Positions 40,999 to 44,535 of a DNA stretch of 64,000 nucleotides are shown here, in pieces (positions within the stretch are counted from its first letter, which is position 1; every line of letters starts with the position of its first letter). The notes below the pieces were generated by a model. That model was not told where the DNA came from, searched no databases, and saw nothing but the letters and a program-made list of their open reading frames with translations. Both the position numbers and the translations under genes were made by a program. The stretch covers positions 1,248,001 through 1,312,000 of the forward strand of contig CAWDOD010000002.1 in the NCBI GenBank assembly GCA_963803805.1, in the 5' to 3' direction. Source of the stretch: an uncultured cyanobacterium. Its GTDB lineage: Bacteria; Cyanobacteriota; Cyanobacteriia; Cyanobacteriales; CAWCAG01.

Positions 40999-42471
40999 CT
41001 AGAAAAGTTCTCCGAAGCCTTTTTTCTTTTTCCCTTTCTTCTTCTTTTTCTTGGAACCCCCTGAATAGCCACGGAAGCCAGGGCGAGGAGCATTCCCACC
41101 TATGCCACCAAACATTCCCCCCATATCGCCTCCCATACCACCCATTCCAGGCATTCCCATTCCGGGCATTCCTCCCCCCTGTCCCATTTGCTGCATCATG
41201 CCTCGCATCCGGGTAAAATCTTTGACTAATTTGCCGACATCGCTTTCTTTGAAGCCGGAACCTTTAGCGATGCGGCGGCGACGGCTGGGAGATTTGGCTA
41301 GTAAGTCAGGGTTTGACCTCTCTTCTGGGGTCATGGAGTTAATCATCGCCTCAGTACGCTTAAGTTGTACTTCCCCTTTTTCCAAGTCTGAACTACTCAA
41401 CTTGCCCATACCGGGAATCATCTTCATCAATCCCCCCAAAGAACCCATATTTTTCAAGAGGCGCATTTGTTTGAGGAAGTCATCAAAGCCAAATCTGGCT
41501 TCCATGATTTTGGCTTGCATTTCGGCAGCATCAGCAATATCAACTTCTTCCTGGGCTTTTTCTACCAGGGTTAGAACATCCCCCATACCCAAAATGCGAG
41601 AGGCCATACGGTCAGGATAAAAGGGTTGCAGGGCTTCTACTTTTTCTCCTACTCCCACAAATTTAATGGGTTGACCAGAAATGCGACGTACCGAAAGTGC
41701 CGCCCCCCCACGAGTATCTCCATCTAATTTGGTGAGAATTGCCCCGGTGATGCCGATTTGTTCGTGGAAGGTGTAGGTAAGGTTAGCGGCTTCTTGCCCT
41801 GTCATGGCATCTACAACCAGGAGAGTATCGTCAGGTTGAATCGTTTCTTTAATTTGCCCTAACTCCCCCATCATTTCTGGGTCAATTTGGAGTCTTCCGG
41901 CAGTGTCAATGATGACGGTATCAACACCCATTTCCTGGGCTTTCTCTACCCCTTGGCGGGCAATTTCTACCGGGTTAGCATCCGTACCCATTTCAAATAC
42001 AGGTACGTTAATTTGTTCTCCTAAAGTGACTAACTGATCAATAGCTGCTGGGCGGTAAATATCCGTAGCCACCATTAAGCAATCGCGGTTTTGCTTACGC
42101 AAATGTAGTGCTAGCTTAGCTGTGGCAGTGGTTTTTCCTGTACCTTGCAAACCTGCCATTAAAACTACAGTTGGTTTAGTTTCAGCTTGGGCGAGGGGAA
42201 CATTGGTTTCTCCCATCACCTTAACTAATTCATCATGAACAACTTTAATAAATTGCTGATCAGGACGTACCCCGGAAACTACTTCAGCCCCTTGGGCTTT
42301 ACTTTCTACCTCAGCGATAAAGTTCTTAACCACTTGGAGGTTAACATCAGCCGCTAAAAGGGCGCGGCGTACTTCTTTTAAGGCTTCTTGAATATTAGCT
42401 TGAGAAATTTTATCTTGACCGCGTAGCTTTTTCCAAGCATCCTCTAAACGGTCGGCTAGGGCATCAAACAT
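40999..42471 (-). CDS. ffh: Signal recognition particle protein Ffh
   Basis: GLQGTGKTT, DTAGRL and TKLDGDTRGG motifs; Met-rich M domain. Confidence 0.97.
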   Translation of the reverse strand: MFDALADRLEDAWKKLRGQDKISQANIQEALKEVRRALLAADVNLQVVKNFIAEVESKAQGAEVVSGVRPDQQFIKVVHDELVKVMGETNVPLAQAETKPTVVLMAGLQGTGKTTATAKLALHLRKQNRDCLMVATDIYRPAAIDQLVTLGEQINVPVFEMGTDANPVEIARQGVEKAQEMGVDTVIIDTAGRLQIDPEMMGELGQIKETIQPDDTLLVVDAMTGQEAANLTYTFHEQIGITGAILTKLDGDTRGGAALSVRRISGQPIKFVGVGEKVEALQPFYPDRMASRILGMGDVLTLVEKAQEEVDIADAAEMQAKIMEARFGFDDFLKQMRLLKNMGSLGGLMKMIPGMGKLSSSDLEKGEVQLKRTEAMINSMTPEERSNPDLLAKSPSRRRRIAKGSGFKESDVGKLVKDFTRMRGMMQQMGQGGGMPGMGMPGMGGMGGDMGGMFGGIGGNAPRPGFRGYSGGSKKKKKKGKKKKGFGELF

Positions 42472-42555: not shown

Positions 42556-43152
42556 TTAATTCAACTCGGAGTTGAACTCGTTGAAGGAACGCCTTTTCAA
42601 CTCCACTGACTCAGAACGAGGTAGGAGATCAAATACTTCCCGGAAAACACTATCAATGTCTTCAAACTTAGCTTGTCCAGTTTGATTAAAGACAATCTCA
42701 CGATTTTGATTTAGTAAGACAGTTTGAGGAATTGCCCCTTGGTAGTAATAACCTACTTCTTCAGGACTGTATTCAGCCTTGATCGGAATAGAATCGACAT
42801 TGATGGGAATAAAACTCGCTACTTTGCCGTAAAATCGCTGTAACTGAGAGATAACCTCAGAAAATCTTTTACAATCGCTGCTATCTTCTACATAAAAAAC
42901 TAACAGAGCAACTTTATCTCTTTGGAAAGATTCTACTAAGGTCATGCGAGGGGGGACTAAAGAGCCATTCCCGGCATAAAGAGCAAAGATATTGCCATCA
43001 AACCTGTCGTCTTCAAGCCCTGCTTTGGCTGAGGGGGTTCCGAAAAGCAAGAAACTGCTTAGCCCAGCTATGAGTATTATTGAGCAAAAACGAAAGCAAA
43101 TTTTTCTTAACTGAAGGTTATTTAGCCAGTGGTGCAACCGCGAAAAAATCAT
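42556..43152 (-). CDS. Thioredoxin-like thylakoid protein (putative photosystem I accumulation factor family)
   Basis: Signal/TM segment then DDRFDGNIFALYAGNGSLVPP...SSDCK...RRSFNEFNSEL. Start trimmed to ATG 43152 because the longer ORF overlaps the tRNA. Confidence 0.7.
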   Translation of the reverse strand: MIFSRLHHWLNNLQLRKICFRFCSIILIAGLSSFLLFGTPSAKAGLEDDRFDGNIFALYAGNGSLVPPRMTLVESFQRDKVALLVFYVEDSSDCKRFSEVISQLQRFYGKVASFIPINVDSIPIKAEYSPEEVGYYYQGAIPQTVLLNQNREIVFNQTGQAKFEDIDSVFREVFDLLPRSESVELKRRSFNEFNSELN

Positions 43153-43236
43153 AAGGTTCTTTTTACCAATTAAATCAGCTATTATTAATAGTACAGCTAG
43201 GGGCTGTGGCTCAGTTGGATAGAGCAAGCGCCTCCT

Positions 43237-44086
43237 GAACAATCGGGCCTCTTGGGGGAAACTCCAGGTAGTGAATGCGGTCAAATTCAAGGAAGCCTAA
43301 GTCTGTTTAAACAGAGAGGGTAATCTTGAGCCAAGCTTATATTTGTCTATATAGACAAGTTATTTGAAGGTGCAGAGACTGGTTGAATGAGAGCTAAAAA
43401 ATGATGGACTATGATGTCTCATCAAAAGTAGAGCAAAGAGGCATTCTGGCCGGGATGTTATTGGGTGCAGGCAGGAGAAATAAACAAAATTTCTATCTTC
43501 TAAACCTGAATTTGCCAGAGGAATATGTTCTATTTAAAAAGCAACTCCTTGAACAAATCATCCGTAAGCCAGTTAGTCTTCGGGAAAGAAAAACTAAAAA
43601 CGGTACTGCCTTAATACGCTTAGAGCCAAAGTTAATTCCCTTAACTAGGGTTTTGGTTAAAAAGTTTTATCAAGGAACAACTCCTAAAATTACGAGGAAG
43701 TTTCTTGGTCTTCTAACCCTTCCTAGTATCGCAATTTGGTTTATGGATAAAGGTTCTAAATCTTTTAAGAGAAAGAACGGAAAAATCCATAGCCTGGAAG
43801 TTAACTTCAATACCAATATCTGCCAAGCAGAAAACGAGTTGATAGTAGCTTATTTTGCTGAAGTTTGGGGTTTTAAGTGGGGATTAAGCCAAGGTAGAAA
43901 CGCTTACCGTTTAAGGATGGGGACGAAAGAAGGTAAAAGGTTTTTCCGTTTCCTTCATCCCTATATTCATCCCGCTATGCTCTACAAAATAGAAACCTCT
44001 TGTCAACATAACGGCCGCCACCTAAAAGAGTTTTGTTCTTATGGTGAAGGGATAGTCCAGAGAGTGGGGAAACTCACACAAATCTG
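43237..44086 (+). ncRNA. Group I self-splicing intron (IC3-like), 850 nt, inserted 3' of the CCU anticodon
   Basis: P1 CCU|GA:UCGGG with U.G at the 5' splice site; P2 with GAAA loop; P3 GCGGUC:GGCCGC (44013-44018); P4 UUCAAG:CUUGAG; R GCAGAGACUG; S AAGGGAUAGUCC; P8 CACC..GGUG with CCUAAA/UAUGG receptor; P9 GUGGG-GAAA-CUCAC; terminal omega-G at 44086. Confidence 0.92.
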
Positions 44087-44087
44087 A
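43401..44087 (+). CDS. Intron-encoded two-motif LAGLIDADG (LAGLIDADG_2-like) homing endonuclease/maturase, degenerate active sites
   Basis: Motif 1 ILAGMLLGAG, EEYVLFKK, motif 2 LTLPSIAIWFMDKG and C-terminal PYIHPAMLYKI. Basic protein lying inside the intron. Confidence 0.8.
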   Translation: MMDYDVSSKVEQRGILAGMLLGAGRRNKQNFYLLNLNLPEEYVLFKKQLLEQIIRKPVSLRERKTKNGTALIRLEPKLIPLTRVLVKKFYQGTTPKITRKFLGLLTLPSIAIWFMDKGSKSFKRKNGKIHSLEVNFNTNICQAENELIVAYFAEVWGFKWGLSQGRNAYRLRMGTKEGKRFFRFLHPYIHPAMLYKIETSCQHNGRHLKEFCSYGEGIVQRVGKLTQI

Positions 44088-44535
44088 AGCGCTAGGTCGC
44101 CGGTTCAAATCCGGCCAGTCCCGTTTTTTCAATGCTCAATGCTAAGTTATCTTGGTTTAGCCACTTAAGTTCAATCTAGTATAAGTAATAGTTTGTCTAA
44201 GTTCAGTTGGTTATTAAATCTTTTGAATTTACATAACTTCAACTTAAAATTTGTCAAGTCCCAAAAATTTCTCCAAAGGACGCATTTGTGTGGTTTAATT
44301 AGGAAATCAGAAAATTACACTGCTACGTTTTTGTCTAAAGTCAACATCAAATCTCTATAAGGTAGATAAATCGTTGGTTTTGATGCTATTTTTCCACAAA
44401 AGCATAGTGATAAGAAGGGCTAGGTCGAACAAATTTTGAGGCAATTTCAAAAGTTTTTTTGACAAATAAAGCGCTTTAAGTTAGAAGCAATTTGCTTGTG
44501 ACTTTTTTTGTCTATTCCATTTTTCTTCCTTGACA

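Follow-up and report, generated by a model that had tools for sequence, protein, structure and literature searches.

Locus and intron boundaries

The window analysed here, a 64,000-nucleotide stretch of cyanobacterial DNA, carries on its forward strand a tRNA-Arg(CCU) gene (43200-44123) in which a group I intron of 850 nt follows the anticodon, and the intron contains an open-reading frame for a LAGLIDADG_2 protein. Exon 1 (43200-43236), which ends with the anticodon CCT, and exon 2 (44087-44123) were identified from the sequence, from the intronless gene of genome G013 and from a contig of DNA run X1. The intron (43237-44086), delimited with the Rfam model RF00028, the homologue L063 and the P3, P7 and P8 pairings, ends with the omega-G, G44086, and is followed by A44087, the first base of exon 2 and A37 of the tRNA. 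The exon boundaries are fixed by natural intronless alleles: one X1 contig has 43236 fused straight to 44087, and in G013, whose gene was called as tRNA-Arg(cct) by ARAGORN, both exons are contiguous and share 97% and 92% identity with those of the window. Across its two splice sites the window reads ..CCT|G... ...CTG|A, with the 5′ exon ending in U and the intron in G, and the intronless alleles indicate that removal is precise. ARAGORN called no tRNA on the interrupted window gene, and Rfam at its gathering threshold returned no match in the whole window; both misses are due to the 850-nt intron and carry no weight against the tRNA gene.

The LAGLIDADG_2 ORF (43401-44087, 228 codons) was recognised by the ORF call, Pfam and a structure model, and its tail is read from the 3′ strand of P7.1, P3′, P8, P7′ and P9. 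The start conserved among relatives is the second ATG, at 43404. For comparison, 55 loci encoding relatives were collected from species-representative genomes. A tRNA-Arg intron context was present in all 53 loci uncut by contig ends, and the two cut loci (L053 and L056) show the remaining half; these two were omitted from alignment A2, which therefore holds 54 sequences, the window and 53 loci.

On the reverse strand, a listed 244-aa ORF (42556-43290) overlaps tRNA exon 1 and the start of the intron, so its true start is probably further in; its C-terminal part is thioredoxin-like by eye. The neighbouring 490-aa ORF (40999-42471, also reverse strand) resembles, by eye, the signal recognition particle protein Ffh.

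The group I core

At relaxed thresholds, the window scored 43.3 bits against RF00028, below the gathering score of 50, with only the 5′ half properly aligned. This low score results from about 600 nt of ORF that split the core. The cmscan alignment of the window was rejected for P3′, P8 and P9, as it forces these elements onto ORF sequence. The ORF-less homologue L063 scored 67 bits (E 4.8e-17), and its Rfam alignment runs in the order P7, inserted hairpin, P3′, P8, J8/7-P7′ and P9, which confirms both the position of the hairpin between P7 and P3′ and the identity of the elements crossed by the reading frame.

The 5′ strand of P3, GCGGTC (43277-43282), pairs with P3′, GGCCGC (44013-44018), as placed by covariation, the MFE fold and the L063 alignment; over the 54 sequences of A2 its 6 pairs are 100% paired, two of them with changes on both sides. 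The 5′ strand of P7 (43375-43380) consists of a G, a bulged A and GACT, and pairs with P7′, AGTCC (44054-44058), which is preceded by the J8/7 sequence AAGGGAT and was placed by the L063 alignment and covariation. The four GACT/AGTC pairs are invariant in 54 of 54, and the G43375-C44058 pair and the bulge were read from the sequence. P8 (44019-44046), a CACC...GGTG hairpin located by the L063 alignment, the stop survey and covariation, contains a TAA (44023-44025) that is the majority stop of the family and out of frame in the window; its proximal part is 100% paired over the 54 sequences with one covarying pair. The P9 hairpin, GTGGG-GAAA-CTCAC (44064-44077), was placed by the L063 Rfam alignment and the sequence. 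P9 pairs, and a single distal pair in a poorly aligned column, were left out of the covariation evidence. With P3, P7 and P8 supported by comparison over 54 sequences, the intron can be assigned to group I.

The subgroup is putatively IC3, by resemblance to classical tRNA introns, among which the extra P7.1 is atypical. ORF-less IC3 introns interrupt the tRNA-Ile of Azoarcus, the tRNA-Arg(CCU) of Agrobacterium and cyanobacterial tRNA-Leu(UAA), and the window intron resembles them in its anticodon-loop insertion, its compact core and its GAAA-capped P2 and P9. The classical forms are without P7.1, like the relative L068, whereas the window lineage has it with or without an ORF. Among the works cited in PMC3984707 are studies of the Azoarcus and Synechococcus IC3 pre-tRNA ribozymes.

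A P7.1 stem encloses the ORF

The first-pass annotation, made from the sequence of the window, had proposed that a stem between 43382-43393 and 43997-44007 loops out the ORF between P7 and P3′. The stem is real and its pairing slightly better than drawn, with 11 bp and one bulged A. Its 5′ strand, GTTGAATGAGAG (43382-43393), holds the SD-like sequence GAGAG (43389-43393) and is supported by RNAduplex, covariation and the MFE fold; its 3′ strand, CTCTTGTCAAC (43997-44007), is supported by alignment A2, RNAduplex and covariation and is one base longer than in most relatives. RNAduplex gave the stem -10.8 kcal/mol, and the MFE fold of the whole 925-nt pre-tRNA recovered both P7.1 and P3 (z = -6.9, 20 shuffles), the bulge falling on A43386 or A43387 depending on which of the two predictions is used.

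The stem is formed in all 54 homologous introns (-9.7 to -16.3 kcal/mol by RNAduplex). On A2, 90.9% of its cells are paired and four of the nine proximal pairs have changes on both sides; pair 321/986, for example, occurs as AU (21), GC (15), UA (13) and CG (3). For the whole tested structure (P3, P7, P7.1 and P8), the covariation score was 0.180, compared with 0.028-0.071 when the partners were slid. The relatives are not independent, so a shuffle control overstates significance and the slid-partner control is the fairer one. Together with the L063 alignment, the presence of the stem throughout the family bears out the placement of the ORF in a P7.1 loop between P7 and P3′, and P7.1 is a genuine element of the lineage.

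The tRNA-Arg site takes four forms in 41 related genomes: it carries an ORF-bearing intron, an ORF-less intron, an intron that has no P7.1 (L068), or no intron. The introns L063-L068 come from genomes G012, G018, G014, G038, G035 and G019, and the site states also involve G013, G007 and G028. ORF-less forms give a pre-tRNA of 320-371 nt. Of the six ORF-less introns read, five (L063-L067) retain the P7.1 hairpin, in which compensatory changes have arisen afresh, such as GCTGTAG/CTACAGC in L066 and GTTACAGA/TCTGTAAC in L067; L068 has no P7.1 hairpin. L063 and L066 retain the GAGAG/CTCC stem together with remnants of the final ORF codons, a pattern that looks like deletion of the ORF and not like a primitive ORF-less state. 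The stem is present without the GAGAG/CTCC pairing in L064, L065 and L067.

An SD-like tract lies within the stem

As had been noted from the window sequence, the GAGAG in the stem is the sole SD-like tract in the 19 nt from the start of the stem to the ATG. It lies 7 nt before the ATG at 43401 and 10 nt before the ATG at 43404, and across the family a purine tract stands about 5-13 nt before the conserved ATG, as read from the per-locus table. Such a tract (AAGGAG, GGGAG, GAGAG and the like) is found in the distal 5′ strand of P7.1 in 53 of the 54 sequences. On the facing 3′ strand, 37 of the 54 have CCTCC and 44 have CTCC or CCTC; CCTCC is the sequence of the 16S anti-SD core. This CCUCC-like tract occupies the codons for a conserved ..T-S.., just after the protein fold ends. 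An SD tract base-paired in a conserved helix has the features of an RBS-sequestering structure, and on this comparative evidence the proposal of an SD within the stem generalises across the family.

Cyanobacteria often initiate translation without a strong SD, and the GAGAG of the window is a weak SD-like tract. For these reasons, and because L064, L065 and L067 keep the stem without the GAGAG/CTCC pairing, the P7.1 stem may owe its conservation to the architecture of the ribozyme and not to control of translation.

The encoded protein has lost the catalytic residues and remains under selection

The window protein, which is single-copy in its genome, matched PF03161 with E 2.9e-27 and 96.1 bits (cut-off 25), residues 13-181 covering profile positions 1-168 of 168. 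Profile searching placed I-SceI and a related intron endonuclease (PDB 1r7m, 3oor and 6x1j; E 3e-10 to 3e-9) nearest among solved structures, and the alignment with the I-SceI profile covers the whole fold and ends at ..YKL. An AlphaFold model had a mean pLDDT of 83.5; values exceed 85 as far as about residue 200 and drop under 50 over residues 203-228. The tail is thus modelled as disordered and outside the protein fold.

The LAGLIDADG motifs read GAG and DKG in the window protein and GDA and DDG in I-SceI, so that the acidic residue expected at the eighth position of both motifs in an active double-motif homing endonuclease was not found; I-SceI has Asp at both positions, and the window protein Ala (A23) and Lys (K117). 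We take the two motif Asp of I-SceI to be its catalytic residues. Among the 120 relatives listed of 155 matches, both acids are kept in 33, one in 20 and none in 67, and the motif 2 replacement is often Lys (37) or Arg (20); for the 54 loci, the counts for both, one and no acids are 11, 15 and 28. The dN/dS of the window against G001 was 0.18 over codons 1-198, and the median (NG86, ungapped) was 0.17 for 52 pairs with neither acid and 0.15 for 52 pairs with both, these pairs not being independent of one another. The body of the ORF is under purifying selection. This suggests a retained function other than canonical cleavage, and the protein may have a non-nuclease role, for example as a maturase. 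PMC3984707 cites a cyanobacterial group I maturase.

Variation at the 5′ end of the ORF was also seen. The conserved ATG is ATA in 10 of the 54 loci, and some ORFs in that clade open far upstream. The frame of L040 (512-1418) and L054 (512-1419) is open from 3 nt past the 5′ splice site; it has an ATG in the P2 region and passes through P3-P7 into P7.1, a 5′ core creep over the whole 5′ half of the ribozyme. L012, L037, L038 and L045 were listed alongside L040 and L054 in this observation. For L015, L017, L031 and L055 an upstream start is lacking, and these ORFs may be dead; the ORFs of L015 and L055 are truncated.

The frame ends at the splice junction

The stop codon of the window ORF (44085-44087) is a TGA made up of a T, the omega-G and the A that begins exon 2, as seen in the sequence, the ORF call, the X1 contigs and the stop survey. 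Every sequence statement of the first-pass annotation holds: the frame runs through P3′, P8, P7′ and P9 to the junction, and the excised intron of the window, which ends ...ATCTG, has no in-frame stop.

An indel had been raised as a caveat. Over 43968-44069 and 44055-44131, Logan contigs of X1 show 0 differences from the window and 0 gaps; X1, though assembled independently, may be the source sample of the window. The same frame is common to G001, a contig of run X3 and P0002. The out-of-frame TAA at 44009-44011, which had been suggested as the stop after a single indel, was rejected as the true stop, being used by none of the 54 relatives; a one-base deletion would instead give the majority frame, with the stop TAA at 44023-44025. 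A salt-marsh metatranscriptome, run X2, contains two contigs spanning 43379-43996, a stretch that begins with P7.1 and stops immediately ahead of its 3′ strand, and their ends are probably assembly-graph breaks at the conserved core and not evidence for processed RNA. The RNA runs X2 and X6 consist of contigs only and are silent on transcript ends, splicing level and translation.

Where the frame stops in relatives was surveyed by reading all 54 sequences onward from the conserved Tyr-Lys codons. The stop is a TAA just after P3′, at the start of P8 (CCACC-TAA), in 37 of 54 loci; it lies inside P8 in 12, is the TAG of J8/7-P7′ in two, falls in the P7.1 3′ strand in one (L040), and is the junction TGA in two, the window and L021. 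Termination before P3′, which had been named as an outcome contrary to the proposal, is therefore confined to L040, most relatives stopping just after P3′. Since the 3′ half of the ribozyme lies within the reading frame, a translating ribosome and a folded core do exclude each other on one molecule, as had been suggested for the window; this applies to 53 of the 54 and not just to the window.

Compared with most relatives, the P7.1 3′ strand of the window is longer by one base, matched by one in the 5′ strand, and the extra base in the 3′ strand shifts the frame so that it misses the P8 TAA. In 53 of 54 sequences, the three frames leading into J8/7 terminate at fixed sites, namely the junction TGA, a TAG at -31 and a TGA at -39; in the columns of window 44043-44087 these are the TGA in GGTGAAGG, the TAG in AATAGTCC and the TGA at the splice junction. 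The sole exception is L042, whose junction reads CCG|A. The junction UGA is latent in 53 of 54 owing to RNA conservation (..AAUCUG|A), and would be used only when the ORF arrives in that frame without having met a stop in the variable P8. G001, of the same genus and with 91% nucleotide identity, has the stem and frame of the window and ends ...HLKELLL* at a TGA in P8, since one extra base in P8 brings a TGA 46 nt upstream of the junction into frame, giving a protein of 213 aa; the X3 contig has the same P8 insertion.

Ends of the form ...TQI or ...AQI occur in 4 of the 120 listed protein clusters (of 155 matches): the window, P0002 (87% identity), P0026 (from L021) and P0086. The likeness of these four long forms over GEGIVQRV.KLTQI comes from ribozyme sequence (J8/7, P7′ and P9) read as protein. 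A FastTree tree built on residues 2-196 of the 120 listed proteins places those with a shifted frame in two distinct clades. One comprises P0001 and P0002 (support 0.82) and sits beside the unshifted P0003 and P0004; the other comprises P0020, P0040, P0026, P0079 and P0086 (0.90), with ends in P8, J8/7 or at the junction. Both lie within a 29-leaf clade whose remaining 22 leaves are unshifted. The idea of the junction stop as a conserved or selected device is not upheld by this distribution: two of 54 loci, four of 120 listed proteins, in two clades, and not kept in G001. Given P0002, P0026 and P0086, it may still be of benefit in some lineages.

A more distant protein, P0111 (231 aa), reads through GEGIVQ (J8/7-P7′) and then differs (..TTNCKAYRRRKP); it may represent another creep through the 3′ core with a different P9 or host context.

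Comparison with known introns

In the core creep model, an intron ORF extends into the group I core to the next in-frame stop, and the model predicts that the length of the extension varies between lineages and that the extension lies outside the protein fold (Edgell, Chalamcharla and Belfort 2011, PMC3073962). Both predictions agree with what was found in this family by the stop survey and in the AlphaFold tail. The window resembles the systems described there in having an ORF in a peripheral loop whose 3′ end extends into core helices (PMC3073962), but its creep reaches the end of the intron, with a stop made of two intron bases and one exon base. A literature search, not exhaustive, found no junction-spanning stop and no tRNA-Arg(CCU)/LAGLIDADG intron family.

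The T4 td intron with I-TevI is alike in that the RBS is buried in RNA structure, the 3′ end of the ORF overlaps the core and translation competes with splicing; there, an RBS-sequestering hairpin is described, as is a splicing defect upon ribosome entry into the core (PMC3073962). The td element is a local hairpin in the P6 loop and its enzyme is of the GIY-YIG type, whereas the window has a long-range P7.1 that closes the ORF loop and a LAGLIDADG protein (td details from PMC3073962). Unlike in td, the 3′ strand of the window clamp is itself coding sequence, and there is no upstream exon translation, since the host gene is a tRNA. Among cyanobacteria, Table 1 of PMC3073962 gives an overlap with the core of 81 nt for a LAGLIDADG ORF in P8 of the Synechococcus lividus LSU rDNA intron and of 61 nt for a PD-(D/E)xK ORF in P1 of the Synechocystis PCC 6803 tRNA-fMet intron. 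These introns share with the window a cyanobacterial host, a structural RNA gene and an endonuclease ORF that uses core-helix nucleotides; the window differs from them in its host gene, tRNA-Arg(CCU), and in the insertion site, P7.1. The overlap of the window ORF with the core is about 90 nt (43997-44086) and takes in the P7.1 3′ strand, P3′, P8, P7′ and P9.

Interpretation

The reading that we favour, and consider likely, combines a conserved P7.1 clamp with core creep, the junction stop and its non-stop excised intron being real but most likely a neutral, lineage-specific by-product. The P7.1 stem is probably a conserved feature with a function, and the 26-30 residue tail is most likely without a role of its own. 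In this mechanism, P7.1 would clamp the SD-like purine tract against the CCUCC-like tract about 600 nt downstream, in the last conserved codons. Ribosomes could load while transcription of the ORF was still under way; once the 3′ strand had been made and the last ribosome had gone, the stem would close and block initiation, and with the stem closed the core (P3′, P8 and P7′) would fold and splice. The ORFs of the relatives would have crept beyond the stem into the core (53 of 54 by stop position). In the window lineage, the gain of one base in both strands of P7.1 would have moved the frame off the usual P8 TAA and into the frame left open by conserved ribozyme sequence, in which the first stop is formed by U, omega-G and A37. 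The anatomy, the covariation, the spread of stop positions, the lack of an indel, the purifying selection on the ORF body and the disordered tail are results of the analysis, and from them we infer both the neutrality and the order of translation followed by splicing.

The first-pass annotation had gone further and taken the junction stop for a switch, in which protein is released from the unspliced precursor alone, tmRNA deals with the excised intron as a non-stop message, and expression ends with splicing. That this device was selected seems quite improbable to us, even though the excised intron of the window does lack an in-frame stop, the arrangement recurs in L021/P0026, P0002 and P0086, and translation and core folding are physically exclusive. 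The junction stop is used in just two of 54 loci and four of 120 listed proteins, within the genus it either disappeared or never reached fixation (G001), the end points vary inside both shifted clades, and the junction TGA is there in 53 of 54 whether used or not; moreover, sequestration of the SD in P7.1 would already silence the excised intron. The stop position would carry no meaning at all if the ORF were an untranslated, decaying relic of a homing endonuclease, as the replacement of both canonical catalytic acids (A23 and K117), the weak SD, the loss of the start codon in some relatives (ATA, 10 of 54) and the truncation of L015 and L055 might suggest. This we regard as improbable, given a frame open for 228 codons, a model that is confident over residues 1-200, a dN/dS of 0.18 against G001, and a value in pairs with neither acid (0.17) that matches that of intact ones (0.15).

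Nor is the long frame readily put down to the assembly. A spurious base in 43997-44007 would account for the window being one base longer there than most relatives, but X1 contigs match 43968-44131 exactly (though X1 may be the source sample), the extra base or the frame recurs in G001, the X3 contig and P0002, and the 5′ strand of the stem is likewise one base longer, with pairing kept; we find an artefact very hard to credit. A bolder reading, which appears unlikely as a whole, is that the protein abandoned DNA cleavage in most cyanobacterial lineages and was kept, most plausibly, as a maturase or chaperone of its own intron; in that case a timer, with translation first and splicing later, would arise from the clamp together with reading through the 3′ core, and in the window lineage only the unspliced pre-tRNA would release the finished protein.

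Under the favoured reading of a neutral by-product, the junction stop is an extreme but ordinary outcome of a process already described, core creep. The family to which it belongs shows, as in a natural experiment, how nucleotides are shared between a protein gene and a ribozyme: a single intron at a single site in more than 50 species, with at least six ORF end points including the splice junction. It also offers ORFs extended at the 5′ end across the whole 5′ half of the ribozyme, derivatives in which the clamp stem persists without an ORF, and a widespread loss of catalytic residues without relaxed selection. These natural alleles allow a direct test of what core creep predicts and of the proposed long-range SD clamp.
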